Source of the DNA: Candidatus Woesearchaeota archaeon
GTDB taxonomy: Archaea > Nanobdellota > Nanobdellia > Woesearchaeales > GW2011-AR4
Length of the DNA: 64,000 nucleotides
Reading direction: 5' to 3'
Assembly (NCBI GenBank): GCA_016185945.1
Contig: JACPMR010000015.1
Coordinates: 217,543 to 281,542 of the forward strand
Positions within the stretch are counted from its first letter, which is position 1; every line of letters starts with the position of its first letter. The position numbers and the translations under genes are program-made. This document shows positions 3,154 to 50,014 of the stretch, piece by piece. The notes under the pieces were generated by a model that had not been told where the DNA came from, did not search any database, and saw nothing but the letters and a program-made list of their open reading frames with translations.

Positions 3154-4365
3154 ATGCAAAGATACACACTAAAAAATGGCGTAACCTTGATTTTTGAGAA
3201 AAATTCCTCCAAATCAGTTGCAGTTGAGGTTATGTTCAAGGTTGGCTCTAATTTTGAAAGCGGGAATATGGCTGGCATCTCGCATTTTCTTGAGCACATG
3301 CTTTTTGAGGGCACAAAGAACAGAAGAGATTCAAGAGAGATTGCAAATGAAATTGAGAAGTATGGCGGGGAGTTTAATGCCTATACTGCAGGGTATAGAA
3401 CTGCATTCTTCATTAAAATAATACATAAAAGGCTTGATGTTGCTTTGGACATTCTTTCTGATATGATTGCAAACCCGATTTTTGAAATAAAGATTATAGA
3501 AAAAGAAAAGCAAGTTATTTTGAAGGAGATAAACATGATTACTGATGACTCAAGATTGTACCAGTGGATTTTGTTCCACAAAACATTATTTGAGAGGCAT
3601 CCTGCAAAGAATCCAACAATCGGATATGCAAAGACAGTTAAAAGCTTTGACAGGAAGCATGTTGCTGACTATTATTTCTCGCATTATATCCCAAACAATA
3701 TGGTTATTTCTGTTGTTGGAAATGTGTCTAATGTGAAAGATAAAATACAGAGATATTTTGGGCATTTGAAGCCGAAAAAGTCGGTTACTAGAAAACAGAT
3801 AAAAGAGCCGCTGCAAACAAGAATTAAAAAATATGTAGAGAAGAAAAAAACCCTTAACTCTTACATGGTGCTTGGCTATAAAACTGTGCATAGATTGCAC
3901 AAAGACAGTTTTGTGTTTGATGTAATAGGTGCAATACTTGGCAGAGGGCAGTCCGGATGGATATTTGATGAAATCAGAAACAAAAGAGGACTTGCTTACC
4001 AGGTTGGAGTTAATAATGAGCATGAAATTGACTATGGTGCTTTTGCTGTTTATACAAATTTGGACAAAAAGAATATAGAAAAGGCAAAAGAGATTATATT
4101 GCGGCAGTTCAGGAGACTGGAGGATTTAAATGAAAAAGATTTGAACGAGGCAAAAACCTATATCGAGGGCAATCATGCTTTGGAAACAGAGGATAATTTC
4201 CATCATGCCGATAATCTTGCTTTCTGGGAAGCTATAAAGGATGCAAAGCTTGCTGACTCTTATCTGAAAAATATAAGGAAAGTTAGTGTTGAGGATGTTA
4301 AAAGAATTGCAAAGAAGTATTTGAACGATAAGTATACAATGGTGGTTATAGAGCAAGAGGGATAA
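3154..4365 (+). CDS. M16 family zinc peptidase (insulinase-like)
   Basis: Inverted zinc motif HFLEH (HxxEH), NAYT, and C-terminal EIRNKRGLAY. Confidence 0.92.
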   Translation: MQRYTLKNGVTLIFEKNSSKSVAVEVMFKVGSNFESGNMAGISHFLEHMLFEGTKNRRDSREIANEIEKYGGEFNAYTAGYRTAFFIKIIHKRLDVALDILSDMIANPIFEIKIIEKEKQVILKEINMITDDSRLYQWILFHKTLFERHPAKNPTIGYAKTVKSFDRKHVADYYFSHYIPNNMVISVVGNVSNVKDKIQRYFGHLKPKKSVTRKQIKEPLQTRIKKYVEKKKTLNSYMVLGYKTVHRLHKDSFVFDVIGAILGRGQSGWIFDEIRNKRGLAYQVGVNNEHEIDYGAFAVYTNLDKKNIEKAKEIILRQFRRLEDLNEKDLNEAKTYIEGNHALETEDNFHHADNLAFWEAIKDAKLADSYLKNIRKVSVEDVKRIAKKYLNDKYTMVVIEQEG

Positions 4366-4382
4366 GTTTATATAGATGTTAT

Positions 4383-4931
4383 TTGAAAGTTGTAAATGGA
4401 ATGTTTGAAGAAAGTAAAGATGAATCAGCTGTTGTTGAAGATTTTTTAAGCGCACTTAAAGATATTCCCAAAGAAAGGCATGATATACTTATTAAGATTT
4501 TTGATGGTGAATTTAAAAGACATCGCGAATGGGTAAAACAATACTTATTAGGAATTCAAAATAGTACAGAATTCAGCAATGCCATTATACATATTCTTGA
4601 TCAATCTATAACTATAGCATCAGACTTACAGTATCCGCATTCTGACACTAACAGGGCAGAAACATTGGGCAAAGTTTTAGGTTATATTGTTGGGATTGTA
4701 GAATTTGGTGTTACATCAACAAAATTTAATTTAATTGATTACTATAAAAATGAATTATTAAAGAAGTTGAGATTGATAATAACTGTTATAAGGAGGTCGC
4801 CATACGTATCTTCTATGACTTTTGGACATACATCAATAAGGATTAAAGCGTTAGCAAGCCATGTTGAGAGGGATAGTTTAACTGATATAAGAGAGCATTT
4901 TATTCATGCTATTGCTAATATTTTTTCTTAA
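4383..4931 (+). CDS. Hypothetical protein, AT-rich, no recognised family
   Basis: 182-codon ORF filling the gap between the M16 gene and the tyrS 3' end; helical-looking sequence; start uncertain (TTG 4383 or ATG 4401). Confidence 0.5.
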   Translation: MKVVNGMFEESKDESAVVEDFLSALKDIPKERHDILIKIFDGEFKRHREWVKQYLLGIQNSTEFSNAIIHILDQSITIASDLQYPHSDTNRAETLGKVLGYIVGIVEFGVTSTKFNLIDYYKNELLKKLRLIITVIRRSPYVSSMTFGHTSIRIKALASHVERDSLTDIREHFIHAIANIFS

Positions 4932-4934
4932 GCT

Positions 4935-6005
4935 TTATCTCGTCACCTCAAACCCTTTTATCGTCTCGTGCAGTTTCTTCAGTTTTTCATCTTTATTGAA
5001 TGCTTCCCTAACTGGATTTACCATTTCATTTATGTAGTAAGCAACTGCATTTTTCAAATCAGCAGGGTGAATTTTTCCTTCCCTGTAGAGTTTTTCAAGC
5101 TCAGCATAATTTTCTATCACTAAATCTCCTCCAAATTTTTCAGCTCTTTTAATTTCGATTGTATTGAATTTCTCAAAGACAAGGTATTTGGAATACTCAA
5201 GCATGGGATTCTCTTCAACAATCTTTGCCGGGCAAGGTGCTTTGCCAATTTTCCTGCTTATCTCCTCTTCTGAGTCGTTCATGAAAATAGCCCTGTCAGG
5301 ATTGGTTTTTGACATTTTCAATTTCAAAATCCTGTCTTCATCATGCTCTTTTGGCGGCTCTCCTAAGCCAACAAGCATATGGTGGCTTATAACTACTGGC
5401 TTCCAGAAGCCTAAGCTATGACCAAGCTCCCTTGCAAGAACATTAACTTTTCTCTGGTCCATGCCGAGCTGTGTGATGTCTGCTTTGAGATGAAAAATAT
5501 CAGCGCATTGCATGCAGGGATATAAAATTTGAGAAGCCTGCTGCATTTCTCCTTCTTTTCTGCCCATTATCTGTCCTGTTCTTATGATTCTTTGCACTGT
5601 TGAATGCCTTGCAACCTGCATTACCTTTTTCCAGTATTCTGGCTCCTTGACAAAATCGTTAGCCCACAGAAAATCTATATTTTTTAAGTCCATTCCGCAT
5701 TTGCGCCAGACTTCTATCAAGTATTTCCCCACTGTCTGTATTTTCTCCAAGTCGCCGCCCATCTTGTTGTTAGCCCATGCATGCCAGTCAGCAACGAGCA
5801 TCTTGAACTTGATTCCTGCCTTTATCATTTTGTTGATATTAATTGTTCTTAGAATTCCCTGTGCAATATGAATGTCGCCGCTTGGCTCGAACCCGTCATA
5901 AGCAATTGGGTGCTCTTTTGTTTTCAATAAATTGACTAGCTCTTCTTCTGTCAGAATTTCCTCTCCAACCTGCTTTATCAGCTCTAGCTTAGTTTCTATA
6001 TCCAT
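4935..6005 (-). CDS. tyrS: Tyrosine-tRNA ligase (archaeal type)
   Basis: YDGFEPSGDIHIAQG (HIGH-like), YPCMQCAD, GMDQRK, KMSKT (KMSKS-like). Confidence 0.97.
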   Translation of the reverse strand: MDIETKLELIKQVGEEILTEEELVNLLKTKEHPIAYDGFEPSGDIHIAQGILRTININKMIKAGIKFKMLVADWHAWANNKMGGDLEKIQTVGKYLIEVWRKCGMDLKNIDFLWANDFVKEPEYWKKVMQVARHSTVQRIIRTGQIMGRKEGEMQQASQILYPCMQCADIFHLKADITQLGMDQRKVNVLARELGHSLGFWKPVVISHHMLVGLGEPPKEHDEDRILKLKMSKTNPDRAIFMNDSEEEISRKIGKAPCPAKIVEENPMLEYSKYLVFEKFNTIEIKRAEKFGGDLVIENYAELEKLYREGKIHPADLKNAVAYYINEMVNPVREAFNKDEKLKKLHETIKGFEVTR

Positions 6006-6589: not shown

Positions 6590-6730
6590 CTTGTGAGCGT
6601 GCTGTTGCATGCGATTGACATGGTGAGTGAGTCTCGTGACATAAGCGAGCGAAAGCGAGCTTTCGCATGCCACTCGAGCCTCACATGTCACTGCTCGCAT
6701 GCTCGCTTTCCATGTCACAAGCTCGCACGC
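6590..6730. repeat. GC-rich palindromic (REP/MITE-like) element
   Basis: Built from self-complementary words (gtgacat/atgtcac, gaaagcgagc/gctcgctttc, gcgtgc/gcacgc). 6684-6706 matches 22180-22202 at 22 of 23 nt. Confidence 0.75.
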
Positions 6731-6788
6731 ATATACCACTGGACATCTCTGGGCAAACTATATAAACATATGTCTTAATTATTTGCAT

Positions 6789-7640
6789 ATGATACTACCT
6801 GTATCTTTATTGTCAACCTATTTGTACTGCTCAAGAAAGCTGTTTCTGGAAGAGGTATTGCTTCTTGAGGAGCCGCCAAAGGAAAGCATTGTAATGGGGG
6901 CTATAAGGCATGAGACATATGACAATATAAACAAGAAAGAAGAGGAAATAGTAACTTCATTAACAAAGAGGATGCCTTTAGGAAGCATTCAAGCATTATA
7001 TAAACAAAAATACCTTCAAGTACTAAGAAAAGCTATAGCGAACAACAGGAAAAGGCTGGAAGCAGTAAATCTCAACATGCTGGATGTCTACAAGAAAAGC
7101 TTCCAGTTCATTATAGATGAATCAGATATGAGGGCAAGCCATGTATTCAGCTTTATGGAAGCTAATAAGGTATTTGGGCAGGAATTATGGCAGAGATTAA
7201 CACCAAAAATCATATCTGAATTAAGGGTAGAATCAAAGCAATTAAGGTTAAGGGGCATTATAGACCAAGTTCATATTTATGAAGAGAATTATGTGCCATT
7301 CGAGCTTAAGACAGGGAGAGTGCCTCAGGATGGAGTTTGGCCTTCCCACAGGGTTCAGATAGCTGCTTATTCCATGCTATTGCAGGAAAAATTCAATAAG
7401 AAAGTAAAAGAGGGTTATGTTGTCTACCTTGACACAAAAGAGAAAAGGCAAATAACAATAAACCCCTTCATGAGGGAAGAAGTAAATCAAATAGTTGACG
7501 AAATAATAGCTTTGCTTGAAAGCAAGGAACTGCCTGATTTCTGCAACAATGAAAACAAGTGCAGGAAATGCGGATTAAAGCAGACATGCTACAATGAAGA
7601 GGAAGTGAATAATTTATTGAAGATTAGGGCTTCAAGCTGA
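6789..7640 (+). CDS. Stand-alone Cas4-like PD-(D/E)XK nuclease with Fe-S cysteines
   Basis: N-terminal YCSRK, GIIDQV...ELKTG, QIAAY, C-terminal C-x6-CRKC-x5-C. ATG 6789 follows a tatataaa box; no array nearby. Confidence 0.85.
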   Translation: MILPVSLLSTYLYCSRKLFLEEVLLLEEPPKESIVMGAIRHETYDNINKKEEEIVTSLTKRMPLGSIQALYKQKYLQVLRKAIANNRKRLEAVNLNMLDVYKKSFQFIIDESDMRASHVFSFMEANKVFGQELWQRLTPKIISELRVESKQLRLRGIIDQVHIYEENYVPFELKTGRVPQDGVWPSHRVQIAAYSMLLQEKFNKKVKEGYVVYLDTKEKRQITINPFMREEVNQIVDEIIALLESKELPDFCNNENKCRKCGLKQTCYNEEEVNNLLKIRASS

Positions 7641-8040: not shown

Positions 8041-9003
8041 TTGCAAGACAATGCTCTATGGACTGAGAAGTATCGCCCAGGAGATTTCTCTGAAATCAAA
8101 GGGCAGAAGGAGATAGTAAAGAGGGTAAAGGCATTTGTAGAGCAGCAGAACTTGCCTCATTTGCTTTTTGCAGGGCCTGCGGGAGTTGGCAAAACAAGCT
8201 TGGCATTGGTAATAGCAAAAAAGCTCTTTAAGGATTTATGGAGGCAGAATTTTTTGGAGTTAAATGCAAGCGACGAAAGGGGCATTGATGTCGTCAGAAA
8301 CAAGGTAAAGGATTTTGCAAGGACAAGGGCAATTGGAGATGTGCCTTTCAAGATAATCTATCTTGATGAGTGCGATGCGCTGACCAGAGAGGCGCAGCAG
8401 GCATTGAGAAGGACAATGGAGAATTACACTCAAACATGCAGATTCATTCTTTCGGCAAATTACTCTTCAAAAATAATCGAGCCAATCCAAAGCAGATGTG
8501 TGGTTTTCAGGTTCAAGCCATTGGATAAGAAAGATGTTATGGAGATTATAGAAAAAATTGCAAAGGATGAAAAATTAAAGATAGACGAGAAAGCAAAAGA
8601 TGCATTATGGGAGATTTCTGAGGGCGACTGCAGGAGATTGGAAAACATTTTGCAAAGCTCTGCTGCAATAACAAGCCATATCACAGAAGACATAGCACAT
8701 TCAACGGCTTCAATAGCAAAGCCAAAAGAAGTGAAAGAAGTTTTGGAACTGGCGTTGAAAAACAAATTTATCGATGCAAGAAACAAATTACTGGACTTGA
8801 TGCTGAATTATGGCTTGGCAGGCATTGATGTGATAAAACAAATGCAGAAAGAGATTTTGGAATTAAATTTAGATAACAAATCCAAGATGATTCTGATGGA
8901 AAAATGCGGCGAGATAGAATTCAGGATGACAGAAGGCTCAGATGAGTTTGTGCAGTTAGAAGCTTTACTAAGCCAGTTTGCCTTGGTTGGAAACAACCAA
9001 TAA
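8041..9003 (+). CDS. rfcS: Replication factor C small subunit
   Basis: WTEKYRP, Walker A GPAGVGKT, LNASDERG, Walker B LDECD, SRC motif; no intein. Confidence 0.97.
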   Translation: MQDNALWTEKYRPGDFSEIKGQKEIVKRVKAFVEQQNLPHLLFAGPAGVGKTSLALVIAKKLFKDLWRQNFLELNASDERGIDVVRNKVKDFARTRAIGDVPFKIIYLDECDALTREAQQALRRTMENYTQTCRFILSANYSSKIIEPIQSRCVVFRFKPLDKKDVMEIIEKIAKDEKLKIDEKAKDALWEISEGDCRRLENILQSSAAITSHITEDIAHSTASIAKPKEVKEVLELALKNKFIDARNKLLDLMLNYGLAGIDVIKQMQKEILELNLDNKSKMILMEKCGEIEFRMTEGSDEFVQLEALLSQFALVGNNQ

Positions 9004-22296: not shown

Positions 22297-23232
22297 ATGG
22301 AAAAGATAGCCACTCGAGACGGTTATGGAAGGGCATTGGTTGAGTTAGGGAAGCAAAATCCGAATGTTGTTGCTTTAGATGCTGACCTGAGCGACAGCAC
22401 AAGGAGCGAGTATTTTGCAAAACAATTCCCCGAAAGATTTTTCTCAATGGGCATTGCAGAGCAGAACATGATAGGGGCTGCTGCCGGACTGGCTTTTTCA
22501 GGCAAGATTGTATATGCAAGCACTTTTGCAATTTTCAGCGAAAGGGCTTATGAGTTCGTGAGAAATGTTGTGTCAAGGAATAAACTGAATGTAAAGATTG
22601 CTGGAAGCCATGCAGGGATTTTTACAGGGGAAGATGGGAAGTCAGCACAGGCAATTGAGGACATTGCTGCTTATCGCGCATTGCCAAACATGATTGTGCT
22701 GCAGCCCTGCGATGCGGTTGAGACAGAGAAGATTGTTTTTGCGCTTGCTGGCTATAAAGGGCCTTCTTACATGAGAATGCACAGGAATCCTGTGCCTGTG
22801 ATTCACGATGCTAATTATAGATTTGAAATTGGAAAGGCAGAAGTTTTGAGGCAGGGCAAGGATGCTGTCATTTTTGCAACAGGCACTTTGGTTCATGAGG
22901 CGTTGAAAGCAGCTGAAATTTTAAAAAATGAGGGAATTGATGTTTTTGTTGTGAATATCCACACTATAAAGCCAATTGATGAGAAATTAATAATTGATTT
23001 GGCGAAGAAGACAAATTGCGTGATTACAGCAGAGGATCATAATGTGATTGGGGGCCTAGGAAGCGCTGTTGCAGAGGTTTTAGGTGAGAATTATCCTTGC
23101 ATTATGAAAAGGATTGGATTGAAGGATATGTATGCAGAGTCAGGCAAGCCGGATGAATTGTATAAGAAATATGGCTTGGATTCACAATCGATTGCTGAGG
23201 AAGTTATTAAGTTTGTAAGTAAGAAGAGATAA
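22297..23232 (+). CDS. tktB: Transketolase, C-terminal subunit
   Basis: ATRDGYG, GIAEQNM, GEDGKSAQAIED, TIKPID, EDHNVIGGLG. Confidence 0.95.
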   Translation: MEKIATRDGYGRALVELGKQNPNVVALDADLSDSTRSEYFAKQFPERFFSMGIAEQNMIGAAAGLAFSGKIVYASTFAIFSERAYEFVRNVVSRNKLNVKIAGSHAGIFTGEDGKSAQAIEDIAAYRALPNMIVLQPCDAVETEKIVFALAGYKGPSYMRMHRNPVPVIHDANYRFEIGKAEVLRQGKDAVIFATGTLVHEALKAAEILKNEGIDVFVVNIHTIKPIDEKLIIDLAKKTNCVITAEDHNVIGGLGSAVAEVLGENYPCIMKRIGLKDMYAESGKPDELYKKYGLDSQSIAEEVIKFVSKKR

Positions 23233-23269: not shown

Positions 23270-23701
23270 ATGGTTAGCTGGATAGTTTATGGGCTGATTG
23301 CATTTGTTTGTTTTGCAGTTAATACCATAGTTTACAAAGTTGCGCAGCAGAAAGGAAATTTTTCTCCTTATTATGGTGCTTTGTTGTTCGGGCTTGGTGC
23401 TATATTGCTGTTTGGCTTTTTTCTTTTGTTTAACAAGCCTGATTTTAAGTTTGAATGGAAATCTGGCAGCTTGGCTTTGATTGCAGGAGTGATATGGGCA
23501 TTTGGCTTTCTTTCAATCGCGATAGCCATCGCGCAGAAAGCAGATGTTGCAAGATTGGCGCCAATTTATAATGCAAACACATTGCTTGCTGTTTTTCTGG
23601 GAATTGTGTTTCTGAAGGAAATTCCGGATGTCACACAAATATTCAGGGTGGTTGCTGGGGCTGTTTTGATTGTTATAGGCGCGATTTTGGTGAGTGTTTA
23701 A
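23270..23701 (+). CDS. EamA/DMT family transporter (single repeat)
   Basis: 143 aa with five hydrophobic segments; API...LAVFLGIVFLKE motif. Confidence 0.85.
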   Translation: MVSWIVYGLIAFVCFAVNTIVYKVAQQKGNFSPYYGALLFGLGAILLFGFFLLFNKPDFKFEWKSGSLALIAGVIWAFGFLSIAIAIAQKADVARLAPIYNANTLLAVFLGIVFLKEIPDVTQIFRVVAGAVLIVIGAILVSV

Positions 23702-23731: not shown

Positions 23732-23956
23732 ATGGAAAAATTAAAATCAAGTGAAATTGCATCTTATACCTTCTGTCCAGTATGTTGGTGGACTGAAAGG
23801 GTTAGAGGAGTTGTCATAACACAAGCAATAAGCAAAGGCGAGCAGTATCATAATACTATTGCTAAAAATCGATCAACTGCTAAATTTCTATACAATTCAG
23901 TTATAATTTTAACTTTTATTATTTTGATTCTTATTGTATACAGGGTTTTAGCATGA
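23732..23956 (+). CDS. N-terminal half of a split Cas4-like protein with C-terminal TM helix
   Basis: KSSEIASYTFCPVCWW...KGEQYH resembles the Cas4 N-terminus; ends in a hydrophobic helix; overlaps the next gene by 4 nt (ATGA). Confidence 0.7.
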   Translation: MEKLKSSEIASYTFCPVCWWTERVRGVVITQAISKGEQYHNTIAKNRSTAKFLYNSVIILTFIILILIVYRVLA

Positions 23957-24456
23957 TAGCTTTGGATATATTAATCATAGGGGCAATTGTCGTACTCTTT
24001 GCCTTGATTATATTATTAAAATTAACAAATGTTCCGGCAGAAATTTATAAGGGCAGATCAATCTACATTGACCATAAGGAAAAACCCATTGAAGCGCTTT
24101 TTTCTCCAAAGTACGGGTTGGTTGGGAAACCTGATTATATTTTGCATACAAAAGATGGATTGTTGCCCTTGGAAATAAAGCATTCGAAGAAGCCTATACA
24201 ACCTTATTTTTCACACGTAATACAATTAATTTCATATTGTTTGTTAATAGAAGAAACCAAAGGTGCAAAACCAAAGTATGGGTTTATCCAATACAAAGAG
24301 GGTAAGCCATTTTCAATTCCTTATACGGTTAATATGAAATTGCTTTTGATAAAAACAATGGAGGAGATGCGGAAGCAGATTGATTCAGGCCAATGCTCAA
24401 ATCCATCTGCAAGGCGTATTTGCAAAAAATGCAGAGAAAAGCTAATCAAAGAGTAA
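23953..24456 (+). CDS. Membrane-anchored Cas4-like PD-(D/E)XK nuclease (C-terminal half)
   Basis: N-terminal TM, GKPDYI...LEIKHS, QLISY, C-terminal C-x8-CKKC. Confidence 0.8.
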   Translation: MIALDILIIGAIVVLFALIILLKLTNVPAEIYKGRSIYIDHKEKPIEALFSPKYGLVGKPDYILHTKDGLLPLEIKHSKKPIQPYFSHVIQLISYCLLIEETKGAKPKYGFIQYKEGKPFSIPYTVNMKLLLIKTMEEMRKQIDSGQCSNPSARRICKKCREKLIKE

Positions 24457-24499: not shown

Positions 24500-25150
24500 A
24501 TGGATTTATTCCTTGACACAGCTTCTGTCCAAGAAGTAAGACAAGGTGCTGAGACTGGATTGATTTCGGGTGTTACTACAAATCCCAGTTTGGCTTTAAA
24601 AGCAGGCGGAGACTACAACGATGTTCTAAAAGAAATCTGCTCTATTGTAAAAGGTCCAGTCAGCGCTGAGACTGTTTCCTTGGATGCAGATGGCATGGTA
24701 AAAGAAGGTGTTGCTTTCTCCAAGATTGCAAAGAACATTGTTGTAAAAGTGCCGATGACTGTTGAGGGGATGAAAGCCTGCCAGAGATTGACGAGAAAAG
24801 ACATAAAAGTCAATGTTACACTGTGCTTTTCCCCTAATCAAGCATTATTGGCAGCAAAATCAGGCGCTTTCATTGTAAGCCCGTTTGTCGGAAGATTGGA
24901 TGATATTGGAGAAGTCGGAATGAATTTGATCAAGGACATAAGATTAATCTATAATAATTACAAATTTACAACACAGATATTAGTTGCTTCCATCAGAAAC
25001 CCTATCCATGTGCTTGAGGCAGCAAAGATAGGGGCAGACATTGCAACAATGCCTTACTCTGTATTTGAGCAGTTGTTCAAGCACTCCTTGACTGATGTCG
25101 GGATTAAGAGATTTCTGGAAGACTGGGAGAAAGTGCTGAAGAGGAAATGA
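24500..25150 (+). CDS. tal: Transaldolase (FSA/TalC family)
   Basis: [19 protein letters not shown] Schiff-base Lys, [20 protein letters not shown]. Confidence 0.93.
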
Positions 25151-25152
25151 GT

Positions 25153-25887
25153 TTAGTTTAAATTTAATTTTTTTAAAATTTCTTCTTTACATTCTGCATA
25201 TGCTCTATTTATAGATTTTCTTTTTGAATTAATCAAAAATTGGTGCATTTCGTTATTAAAAATATAAATATGGTTATTTTTGGGGTCAGTCCCTTCATCC
25301 ATTCTAAATGGTGGATTTATATATCCCGCTTTTTCCCCAATTAATACAAATTCTTGATTAGTCTCTGATGGGTTTGAATAATGAAAATTGCACTTTATTT
25401 CGTCATATGTATCCCAATCTTTTCTCAATTTTGGGCTATCTTTAAGTTTCATATAAGCGAAAATGTAATATTGCTTTTTGTTCTTCTGTAATTCTTTGAT
25501 TTTATTAAAGGTGTAATCAGAATTATGAAGATCCTTAGGACATCGAAAGAATCCCGAATAAAATAATATAAAATCTCCTTTATTAAAATTCTTTAATATG
25601 TTATAATTTTTAATATCTCCATAAGTAAAACATTCAGAATTATATAAGAATGCTGGATCTTGATGAAATTCTAATTGATAGTATTTATTGGATGTAATGG
25701 CTGTCCCTTTAATTATTATTTTATCTTTAGGAAGATAGTTGGATATTTGAGAATAATAATCGGATTTATTTCTAATTTTAGGGAATGGTATAATTTTATA
25801 GTCATTGCTATCTAAATCTGACATAGGAGATACAAAACCGCCATTTGTAGTATCAATTCCTATTCTAATTAAAAATACTCTTGACAT
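25153..25887 (-). CDS. Nmad3-like (nucleotide modification-associated domain 3) protein
   Basis: IRIGIDTTNGGFVSP...IIPFP...HQDP...TYGD...KGDFILFYSG matches the Nmad3 pattern as I recall it; very AT-rich. Confidence 0.65.
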   Translation of the reverse strand: MSRVFLIRIGIDTTNGGFVSPMSDLDSNDYKIIPFPKIRNKSDYYSQISNYLPKDKIIIKGTAITSNKYYQLEFHQDPAFLYNSECFTYGDIKNYNILKNFNKGDFILFYSGFFRCPKDLHNSDYTFNKIKELQKNKKQYYIFAYMKLKDSPKLRKDWDTYDEIKCNFHYSNPSETNQEFVLIGEKAGYINPPFRMDEGTDPKNNHIYIFNNEMHQFLINSKRKSINRAYAECKEEILKKLNLN

Positions 25888-25958: not shown

Positions 25959-26522
25959 CTATAACTCTTCTAAAATATTTTTTTTATTGTAATTGATTTT
26001 ATTTCTTTTAAGTATTTCTTCAAATTCAAGTGAATGCTCAATAGGAATTTTAACAACTCCACTCATTAATCTTGTTCCATTCAAAAGTTCTATAATGCCT
26101 TTTTGGTTTCTGCCGGCAAGGATATAATTAAATTTGATTTTTTGCGTATGGCTAAGTCCTTTTAAATTGTACCAGAAAATTGTGTAAGAATTAAATCCCA
26201 AGATTTGGCAGAATTTTTTATTATGGAAAATACTGAATCCCTCCAGTAAAATTCCTGTTCTTGCCAAGAACTCAGTTGAAAACAAATCTTTCAGAAGACA
26301 TTGCTGCATATCAAGATTTATATCAATTATTCTTTTTACATTATTTTTAATGTCTTGAATTATACCTAGTCTCTCGCGCAAACTTCCTTCTAGAAAGATA
26401 ACCATTATATCTATATCTCTAGAGAACATCTTGCCTTTAACAGAAGAGCCGAAAACAATGATGTCAAAAATTGGCTCTTTTTTTTCATCCTTCAAGCATT
26501 TCTTTAATTTTTCCAATGTCAT
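25959..26522 (-). CDS. Minimal nucleotidyltransferase (MNT) antitoxin with C-terminal extension
   Basis: IIVFGSSVKG...DIDIMV (GS...DxD). ATG at 26522 overlaps the HEPN 3' end. Confidence 0.8.
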   Translation of the reverse strand: MTLEKLKKCLKDEKKEPIFDIIVFGSSVKGKMFSRDIDIMVIFLEGSLRERLGIIQDIKNNVKRIIDINLDMQQCLLKDLFSTEFLARTGILLEGFSIFHNKKFCQILGFNSYTIFWYNLKGLSHTQKIKFNYILAGRNQKGIIELLNGTRLMSGVVKIPIEHSLEFEEILKRNKINYNKKNILEEL

Positions 26523-26823
26523 CTTTAAGCAACTCTGCAGATTCTTTGTCCATCTTCTTGGTGTACGAATCCTGATAAAAAGGAAAATCCCTATCAAGGA
26601 TTTTGTAGATTGGAGAATATTTCTCTTCTATAGTTCTGAATCTGTCAGAATGTGAAGATGGAATTCTTCCTTCTTTTTTTAATAAAAATAAATCACATAA
26701 AGCGACAATTGCTTTAAAGAACAGCGTTGTTGCGCTGTTATATTTTTGCTCATTAAATGCTATTAAACCTAACTGGAAATATTCCTCAAAATTATCTATC
26801 AATATTTTCGCTCTTTCATCCAT
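26485..26823 (-). CDS. HEPN domain protein (toxin partner of MNT)
   Basis: Helical 112 aa with KYNSATTLFFKA and GRIPSSH (Rx4H); adjacent to MNT. Confidence 0.75.
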   Translation of the reverse strand: MDERAKILIDNFEEYFQLGLIAFNEQKYNSATTLFFKAIVALCDLFLLKKEGRIPSSHSDRFRTIEEKYSPIYKILDRDFPFYQDSYTKKMDKESAELLKDDIGKIKEMLEG

Positions 26824-49327: not shown

Positions 49328-50014
49328 TTAAAGTGTGATCAGCGGTTTGCTATCGCCTATCACAAAAGCATATTTTTTTGATGTTTCAACCAAATCTCCT
49401 TTGGAGTCCTTATAGATTATCTTGTTCTCTATAATGTCTTCAACATTACCCACTTCCCCCATGTGTTTGCCTCCTGTCAGGAATATCACGGATTTTTTAT
49501 CGAGTTTCAGGTGTTTGTTTATTTCTTGTTCAGGCAGCGATAAAACAATAGTGTCTCCTACCCTGTAGTTATTTTTGTCAACAAATATGTTTTTCCCGTC
49601 ATAAAGGTTTACCTGCAACTTTCCGTTTACTATTGTTTTTCCAACAATCTTGCATGGCTTTAGACTTGATTCCTCTTTCTTTATCCTGATTACATCTATC
49701 TTTCCCTTTTTGTTTAGTATCACCCTAAAGTGTTCTCCAGTGCTTGTGAATTCTATTGTATCAAAAAGCCCGACTGGAAGTTTGGAGTTCTTCCTGGCTT
49801 TGCCGTCGACTTTTATTTCATTTGACTGCAATAATTTTTTAACTTCCCTAGTTGTTACGGCGTAGCTAAGCACTTCCTTAATCAACACGCTAAAAGCGAC
49901 ACTTTTGTCCAGGCTGTGGGAGCCTGGAGTTGGCTTTGTAACAAACTTTATTCCCTTTCTCCTCACGTTCCAAGTCTTTGGCGCTGCCAGCCTTTTAAGA
50001 TGGTCTTTACCCAT
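49328..50014 (-). CDS. rps4e: Ribosomal protein S4e
   Basis: HLKRLAAP, PGSH, VDGKAR, TGGKHMG. Confidence 0.96.
   Translation of the reverse strand: MGKDHLKRLAAPKTWNVRRKGIKFVTKPTPGSHSLDKSVAFSVLIKEVLSYAVTTREVKKLLQSNEIKVDGKARKNSKLPVGLFDTIEFTSTGEHFRVILNKKGKIDVIRIKKEESSLKPCKIVGKTIVNGKLQVNLYDGKNIFVDKNNYRVGDTIVLSLPEQEINKHLKLDKKSVIFLTGGKHMGEVGNVEDIIENKIIYKDSKGDLVETSKKYAFVIGDSKPLITL

Follow-up and report, generated by a model that had tools for sequence, protein, structure and literature searches.

Cas4-family nucleases that are encoded away from CRISPR-cas loci, known as solo-Cas4, are reported to be monophyletic across many Chloroflexi and to occur in DPANN archaea without CRISPR-Cas (Hudaiberdiev et al. 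2017, PMC5704561). The Cas4 proteins SSO0001, Pcal_0546 (PDB 4R5Q) and the M. mazei Solo-Cas4 are soluble single chains (monomer, decamer or higher oligomer) that carry RecB motifs I–III, a QhxxY motif and the N-terminal and C-terminal cysteines of an iron-sulfur (Fe-S) cluster. A PD-(D/E)XK core stapled by Fe-S between N-terminal and C-terminal cysteines is also found in the iron-staple domains of AddB, Dna2 and ACE1, which are unanchored and unsplit domains of large soluble helicase-nuclease complexes or of Argonaute partners. Membrane-tethered nucleases such as B. subtilis NucA and S. pneumoniae EndA are thought to act on envelope-crossing DNA. Here, we analyzed a 64,000-nucleotide stretch of a Candidatus Woesearchaeota genome (assembly GCA_016185945.1, contig JACPMR010000015.1, positions 217,543 to 281,542; hereafter the window), in which two overlapping genes on the forward strand, open reading frame (ORF) 1 at 23732..23956 (+, 74 amino acids, aa) and ORF2 at 23953..24456 (+, 167 aa), probably encode one Cas4-family (RecB-like, 'iron-staple') nuclease in two subunits at the cytoplasmic face of the membrane.

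The pair is like solo-Cas4 in coding for a Cas4-family nuclease outside CRISPR-cas loci, and the genome also holds a second, canonical solo-Cas4, as the 2017 study notes for DPANN archaea. It differs in being made from two genes with one transmembrane (TM) anchor each, and in the predicted composite nature of its active site and cluster. Neither 'transmembrane' nor 'split' occurs in the main text of that study (PMC5704561), and no description of a transmembrane or split Cas4 was found in the literature searched, where the one match to 'membrane-anchored' was an unrelated lipoprotein. With the soluble Cas4 proteins the pair shares RecB motifs I–III, QhxxY and cluster cysteines near both ends, and a fused homologue resembles them in its modelled fold, whereas the third canonical C-terminal Cys is missing from the pair and the N-terminal half (N-half) contains a CxxC. 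NucA and EndA are likewise tethered to the membrane, but they are single chains of another fold, with the catalytic domain outside the cell and no Fe-S cluster, while both soluble parts of the window pair are predicted to be cytoplasmic. Judged by comparison across lineages, the split membrane-anchored Cas4 is a real variant and an apparently undescribed one.

Cas4 motifs on ORF1 and ORF2

ORF2 matched the Pfam family Cas_Cas4 (PF01930, DUF83) with 39.5 bits over model positions 53–152 of 160 (gathering cut-off 22.7) and the NCBIfam model TIGR00372 with 59.9 bits over positions 56–173 of 180, the latter score lying below the equivalog cut-off of 65. A Pfam scan of ORF1 alone gave no match, and its match to TIGR00372 was weak (13.2 bits, positions 3–44, E 0.058). 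The PADLOC Cas4 model PDLC01447 aligned with both products, with ORF1 at positions 5–48 (E 4e-4) and with ORF2 at positions 31–152. ORF1 and ORF2 cover consecutive parts of one Cas4 model, with a TM helix on each side of the cut. The N-half gene codes for a Cas4 N-terminal segment, predicted to be cytoplasmic, followed by a C-terminal TM anchor at about F52–Y70 (23885..23941, +; Kyte-Doolittle hydrophobicity 2.74), after which four residues remain; the gene of the C-terminal half (C-half) begins with a TM anchor at about L4–L22 (23962..24018, +; hydrophobicity 3.19) and continues into the predicted cytoplasmic nuclease core. The genes overlap by ATGA (23953..23956, +), in which the ATG starts ORF2 and the TGA stops ORF1. 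This is the architecture that the initial annotation had described, with the Cas4 N-terminal segment and a helix on ORF1, and a helix, the PD-(D/E)XK core and QLxxY on ORF2.

On ORF1, S7-E8 is followed by C15-P-V-C18 (23774..23785, +), where C15 is the canonical first Fe-S ligand and C18 an extra, subclade-specific residue, then by two tryptophans directly after C18 and by G36-E-Q-Y-H40 (23837..23851, +), which represents RecB motif I with its metal-ligand His. The catalytic core of ORF2 (24133..24237, +) comprises D61 of motif II, embedded in G58-K-P-D61, E74-I-K76 as the E-x-K of motif III, and Q91xxxY95; three cysteines, C148, C157 and C160, follow at 24394..24432 (+). These residues are strongly conserved: G36 and H40 were invariant in 50 N-halves, with S7, E8, C15, W19 and W20 conserved in at least 90%, and D61, E74, K76, Q91 and Y95 were invariant in 21 diverse C-halves. 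H40 shares an alignment column with the His of motif I in P0097, a fused homologue whose 'G..LH' motif aligns with His94 of Pcal_0546 (PDB 4R5Q) in a phmmer alignment. His94 has been proposed to supply the fourth metal ligand and to correspond to His62 of SSO0001, in which the metal is coordinated by His62 with Asp99, Glu113 and Ile114 (Lemak et al., PMC4176176). The motif I His, which Cas4 proteins carry on the same chain as the core, is present here on a separate polypeptide. These alignments assign RecB motif I to the N-half together with the first cluster Cys, and motifs II and III, QhxxY and the remaining cysteines to the C-half; since the two groups sit on different polypeptides, both the Fe-S site and the active site are predicted to be composite across two chains.

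Recurrence of the split and diversity of its junctions

A protein search with ORF2 returned 96 homologues, mostly from metagenome-assembled genomes of Woesearchaeota and Nanoarchaeota, and nearly all of them were 150–175 aa long and began with Met and a TM helix. On the contigs of two of these homologues a 74-aa ORF lay directly upstream with a 4-nt overlap, in one case within the same tkt-EamA-pair-tal synteny as in the window and in the other within a different neighbourhood; the pair is present in loci L001–L003. Conserved two-gene pairs, which the initial annotation had suggested looking for, turned out to be numerous. A scan of GTDB species genomes gave 80 loci, from Woesearchaeota, many Chloroflexota, Thermoplasmata, Methanotrichaceae and Gemmatimonadaceae, and at nearly all of them a TM helix opens the Cas4 core and a small upstream ORF1 homologue ends in a TM helix; 56 complete N-half/C-half pairs were extracted from this set. 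A metagenome scan gave 80 loci, 42 split and 28 fused. The nearest homologues of the pair are split and have TM helices; single-chain, helix-free proteins in their place would have spoken against the earlier reading. For ORF1, a word-based protein search recovered only six relatives, a limit of sensitivity that a profile search overcame: a profile built from 50 N-halves and run against 1.84 billion representative proteins matched 1575 clusters at E ≤ 1e-3, of which 640 reached E ≤ 1e-10, and the best 150 clusters were all 72–133 aa long with the match reaching the C-terminus.

Altogether, the pair is carried by more than 100 independent loci whose junctions differ. Depending on the lineage, the two genes meet in ATGA, TGATG or TAATG, are separated by gaps of 1–80 nt or by an intervening gene, or are unlinked. 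The ATGA junction occurs in at least 12 DPANN loci and in some loci of Chloroflexota and Gemmatimonadota, and several Anaerolineae have a gene for an L,D-transpeptidase (YkuD), about 800 nt long, between the N-half and the C-half. In one Chloroflexia clade the halves are completely unlinked, and 10 out of 10 genomes without an adjacent N-half had exactly one elsewhere (E 1e-21 to 1e-27, in frames of 86–133 aa).

Fused TM-hairpin forms of this Cas4 exist (P0097 and the Thermoplasmata proteins described below) and ORF2 lies in the −1 frame relative to ORF1, as would be expected if the pair were such a single chain broken by a frameshift error in sequencing or assembly, or by recent pseudogenization. 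Yet the ATGA junction and the lengths recur in many independent assemblies at 50–80% identity, other lineages show gaps, intervening genes or unlinked halves, the catalytic residues are all conserved, and the 640 N-half clusters at E ≤ 1e-10 stand alone. Conservation and junction diversity led us to reject an artefact of this kind, the probability of which we regard as negligible; the assembly error that the initial annotation had named as its possible undoing is at odds with these many assemblies and their differing junctions. A programmed −1 ribosomal frameshift at the overlap, which would yield a single fused TM-hairpin protein, has in its favour the direction of the overlap and a G/T-rich GGGTTTT that precedes ATGA. 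The register of GGGTTTT is wrong, however, as its zero frame is that of ORF2, and reading it at −1 terminates at TAG; at every DPANN locus an ATG belonging to ORF2 stands immediately ahead of the TM helix, and the family accommodates halves that are set apart by gaps, in-frame stops or intervening genes, or that are not linked at all. Given this register and the gapped and unlinked halves within the family, programmed frameshifting was likewise rejected, as very improbable.

Individual loci deserve separate mention. The YkuD gene between the halves (L077, about 4122–4870; also L036, L058, L061 and L062) has a product with a Pro/Thr-rich linker as well as a signal anchor. Among the DPANN homologues a single one is 'long' (P0067, 248 aa, L004:3989–4747), and it is a gene-calling artefact, in which the N-terminal extension is an out-of-frame read of the N-half gene, itself a separate ORF at 4017–4268; its C-terminal Cys motif is degraded and it may be a decaying copy. 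At L057:4577–4869 the N-half matched in two frames, which points to a frameshift within the N-half gene of this metagenome-assembled genome, either a sequencing error or a pseudogene.

Cysteine ligands, fused relatives and membrane topology

The initial annotation had applied to this pair the scheme of one N-terminal and three C-terminal cluster cysteines, which the window's proteins do not follow. Instead of a single N-terminal Cys combined with CX2CX5C, we found C15 and C18 on ORF1, and C148, C157 and C160 on ORF2. The three C-terminal cysteines that had been noted are indeed present, but only C157 and C160 align with CX2CX5C, as its canonical CX2C, and the absence of the canonical third one is a trait of the subclade. 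We compared 104 non-redundant complete cases, consisting of 76 split pairs and 28 fused proteins. Where the N-terminal segment had a single Cys, 89 of 92 cases (61 split pairs and 28 fused proteins) had CX2CX(3-5)C at the C-terminus, and most other split pairs keep the 1+3 cysteines across their two chains. All 12 N-halves with CxxC, that of the window included, had a partner without the third C-terminal Cys, and a CxxC N-half combined with a full CX2CXnC was not seen among the 104 cases. One locus (L109) had exactly 2+2 cysteines, and another (L030) has Asp in place of the Cys on the N-half and has also lost the Cys motif at the C-terminus. This co-variation between the chains appears supportive of a shared cluster, while not being statistically independent.

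Single-chain relatives of the pair, namely P0097 and other Thermoplasmata proteins, have 2, 4 or 8 TM helices exactly at the cut site of the window genes. These TM-hairpin Cas4 proteins (P0097, L031, L034, L038, L059 and L082) belong to the same subfamily (33–40% identity), have their TM insertion at the same position and form the sister clade of the DPANN split forms; they differ in being one polypeptide with 2 to 8 TM helices and in keeping the canonical 1+3 cysteines. The literature searched contained no description of a single-chain TM-hairpin Cas4 of Thermoplasmata. Another Thermoplasmata protein (L085) is a soluble single chain without a TM insert. An AlphaFold2 model of P0097, for which an alignment of fused proteins, N-halves and C-halves served as input, reached a predicted local distance difference test (pLDDT) score of 94.3 and a predicted template modelling score (pTM) of 0.87, and placed a long helical hairpin (residues 34–86 and 91–129) between the N-terminal segment and the beta-strand core. 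The top Foldseek matches of this model in the PDB were Cas4 subunits of Cas4-Cas1-Cas2 complexes (8d3l, E 8e-7, TM-score 0.62–0.66 by target), and further matches included Dna2, ACE1, MGME1, AdnAB and Pcal_0546. In a maximum-likelihood tree of the core, the fused TM forms made up one clade (97/97), sister to the DPANN split clade, both inside an archaeal clade (95/93) that was placed among several unresolved Chloroflexota lineages, all of them split. Because the fused clade nests among split lineages, the split may be the older state and fusion secondary, a point that we make with reserve, as the root of the tree depends on one very long outgroup branch. In two of the fused Thermoplasmata proteins (L034:3849–5507 and L038:653–2314), the eight TM helices between the N-segment and the core resemble repeated hairpins; a Pfam scan of the multi-TM inserts of the fused Thermoplasmata forms gave nothing above threshold.

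Both halves of the pair possess a hydrophobic helix of about 19 aa and a positive-inside bias, as judged by Kyte-Doolittle values and Lys/Arg counts. Averaged over the 56 complete pairs, N-halves had 2.7 Lys and Arg in the 12 residues before the TM helix versus 0.5 after it, and C-halves 0.04 before versus 3.2 after, with external tails of 3.3 and 1.7 residues, respectively. By the positive-inside rule, the N-half is predicted to be N-in/C-out and the C-half N-out/C-in, so that both soluble parts would be cytoplasmic. The cytoplasm is the expected location for an Fe-S protein. The cut would correspond to a tight outer turn of the hairpin, and this arrangement suggests that fission is tolerated since two anchors confine the halves to one membrane plane.

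We therefore envisage a TM hairpin that links the helix of motif I to the first strand of the core, with the gene cut in the short external turn, which would give a tail-anchored N-half and a signal-anchored C-half, neither of them complete alone. The TM helices would hold the halves in the membrane plane, where the cytoplasmic parts could rebuild one active site and one Fe-S cluster in a heterodimer with a shared metal site, probably with two Cys ligands per chain in the window's subclade, and the halves would tend to be made in equal amounts through translational coupling at ATGA. From the characterised Cas4 proteins (PMC4176176, PMC12501428) and the predicted location, the product would be a Mn2+/Mg2+-dependent DNA exo/endonuclease near the membrane. 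The earlier proposal of one Cas4 nuclease formed by two membrane-tethered halves, with its cluster assembled in trans, is in this respect supported by comparison.

Alternatively, the two proteins could be independent, with the C-half acting as an autonomous membrane nuclease and the N-half being an unrelated small membrane protein or a regulator. Such independence would accord with the unlinked halves of one Chloroflexia clade and with the observation that cluster-less Cas4 Cys mutants can stay active in some homologues (PMC12501428). On the other hand, homology ties the N-half to the start of Cas4, with the motif I His and the cluster Cys retained, both halves were found together in 10 out of 10 genomes even if unlinked, the Cys changes are matched between the chains, and the N-segment belongs to one Cas4 fold in the fused relatives. 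We thus consider independent proteins decidedly improbable.

Several points nevertheless weigh against the reading of ORF1 and ORF2 as two subunits of one nuclease with a shared cluster, a reading that is drawn from comparison across lineages. Its structural support is the model of a fused homologue, P0097, that is 33% identical to the window pair. One clade (L123–L126) has just 1+2 cysteines. The tree of DPANN pairs allows one to three changes for the CxxC swap, so that a single event is possible, and we dropped independent origins of the CxxC/lost-Cys swap because the tree is compatible with such an event. Cluster-less Cys mutants of Pcal_0546, SSO1391 and the M. mazei solo-Cas4 stay nuclease-active (PMC4176176, PMC12501428), and for this reason the Fe-S cluster may be structural only. 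Lastly, no gene neighbourhood points to a role, the pair being located among housekeeping genes in Chloroflexales and as a neutral insertion between tkt and tal here.

Genomic context and possible role

No match to Cas1 (PF01867) was found anywhere in the 1.5-Mb genome (24 contigs), which is without CRISPR-Cas, as had been presumed from the window. Rather than being encoded with cas1/cas2, the pair has tkt, EamA and tal as neighbours, and it qualifies as a solo-Cas4 in the sense of Hudaiberdiev 2017, that is, as a Cas4 outside a CRISPR-cas or mobile-element context. The C-half is nonetheless widely annotated as 'CRISPR-associated protein Cas4', including in genomes without CRISPR. The genome holds two further single-chain Cas4-like genes. 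One is the canonical solo-Cas4, located in the window at 6699–7640 (+) as a 313-aa ORF with a probable internal Met start and a CX2CX5C motif (CRKCGLKQTC), and flanked by the genes for a tyrosyl-tRNA synthetase (4935–6005, −) and a replication factor C (RFC) small-subunit-like protein (8041–9003); the other is an ORF at 49994–50359 of contig C11.

In the window, the pair is preceded by a gene for a small EamA-type membrane protein (23270..23701, +, 143 aa), upstream of which lies the gene for the C-terminal half of transketolase (tktC, 22297–23232), and ORF2 is followed by the transaldolase gene (tal, 24500–25150). The EamA-type gene and the pair are one inserted block between tktC and tal, because a genome of the same family (G191) has tal directly after tktC; the EamA-type gene accompanies the pair in four DPANN loci only. 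We had considered a tie of the pair to the pentose-phosphate genes tkt and tal and rejected it, as G191 is without the block and the pair has other neighbours at other DPANN loci. Directly after tal, the segment 25153–26823 (−) contains a gene for an Nmad3-domain protein (25153–25887) and one for a Pol-beta-type nucleotidyltransferase (25959–26597, −) with weak matches to PADLOC PDC-S09, which overlaps a 112-aa ORF (26485–26823); the last two resemble a nucleotidyltransferase/HEPN-type pair. At L001 an OLD-like AAA/TOPRIM gene occupies the position of the 25153–26823 genes, and this may be a variable spot.

Of 201 genomes sampled from the window's own phylum, 2 contained the N-half, as did 41 of 201 sampled Chloroflexota genomes (about a fifth), almost always in single copy. 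The pair sits behind pyrH-frr-uppS-cdsA-rseP in Chloroflexales, and at 17 Anaerolineae loci the gene immediately upstream of it codes for a TRAX/C3PO-like nuclease, and its profile matched the archaeal TRAX/C3PO nucleases AfTRAX (3zc1, E 6.5e-34) and NEQ131. A defence island was not evident, and the models returned by PADLOC were those of Cas4 only. The TRAX-like gene (L029:3921–4619 and 16 further Anaerolineae loci) has the same direction as the N-half gene and partly overlaps it, and the two nucleases may share one operon; in the window's genome a TRAX-like gene is present but unlinked, on another contig (G000:C4:40176–40664). On one metagenome contig (JGI1356J14229_10000009, 406,522 bp), the split-Cas4 locus occurs three times (L126, L127 and L128) at a spacing of exactly 108,817 bp, so that the contig resembles a concatemer whose unit, about 109 kb in size, is a circular element or a piece of a genome; at these loci a polytopic membrane protein, rhomboid-like by eye, precedes the pair.

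The biological role is the weakest step of the proposed mechanism. Our guess is that the nuclease would degrade or process the ends of membrane-near DNA, either incoming foreign DNA or DNA for salvage, independently of CRISPR. We lean slightly towards such action on DNA at the membrane because of the anchor and the patchy, insertion-like distribution in DPANN archaea, and regard a housekeeping role as almost as likely because in Chloroflexota the pattern is vertical and single-copy and the neighbouring genes are housekeeping ones. With an identical architecture, the pair could serve housekeeping DNA repair or recombination, or nucleic-acid turnover, and not incoming DNA. This would fit a single-copy gene whose tree largely follows taxonomy, its location behind pyrH-frr-uppS-cdsA-rseP or directly after the TRAX/C3PO-like gene, the report that solo-Cas4 genes evolve like ordinary cellular genes (PMC5704561), and the lack of any defence-system assignment by PADLOC beyond Cas4. 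An accessory function, by comparison, agrees better with the patchy distribution (20% of Chloroflexota and 1% of the own phylum) and with a block whose presence varies among genomes of one family, and a membrane anchor on a repair nuclease would be left without explanation. We hold the housekeeping role to be a substantial possibility, if one of less than even probability. The role in DNA-uptake processing or boundary defence that the initial annotation had put forward remains speculation. In a more elaborate version the split would be functional and not neutral, with two inactive halves that come together in the membrane under control of, for example, membrane perturbation or phage-injected or conjugating DNA. 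The pair would then be a membrane-gated innate defence or DNA-entry surveillance nuclease of about a fifth of Chloroflexota species and of scattered archaea, acting in Anaerolineae maybe with the TRAX/C3PO-like nuclease; this seems rather unlikely to us.

While the Cas4 relatives AddB, Dna2 and ACE1 are known as soluble single-chain iron-staple nucleases, the pair described here would represent a large and conserved subfamily that is anchored and encoded by two genes. Its catalytic His and one cluster ligand would reside on an 8-kDa subunit that current annotation leaves unnamed, and the annotation of the C-half can be corrected by adding the obligatory partner that is currently missed. As a natural split enzyme held together by a severed TM hairpin, it may be useful for thinking about gene fission and engineered split nucleases. 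Finally, solo-Cas4 would gain a defined and testable cellular location.

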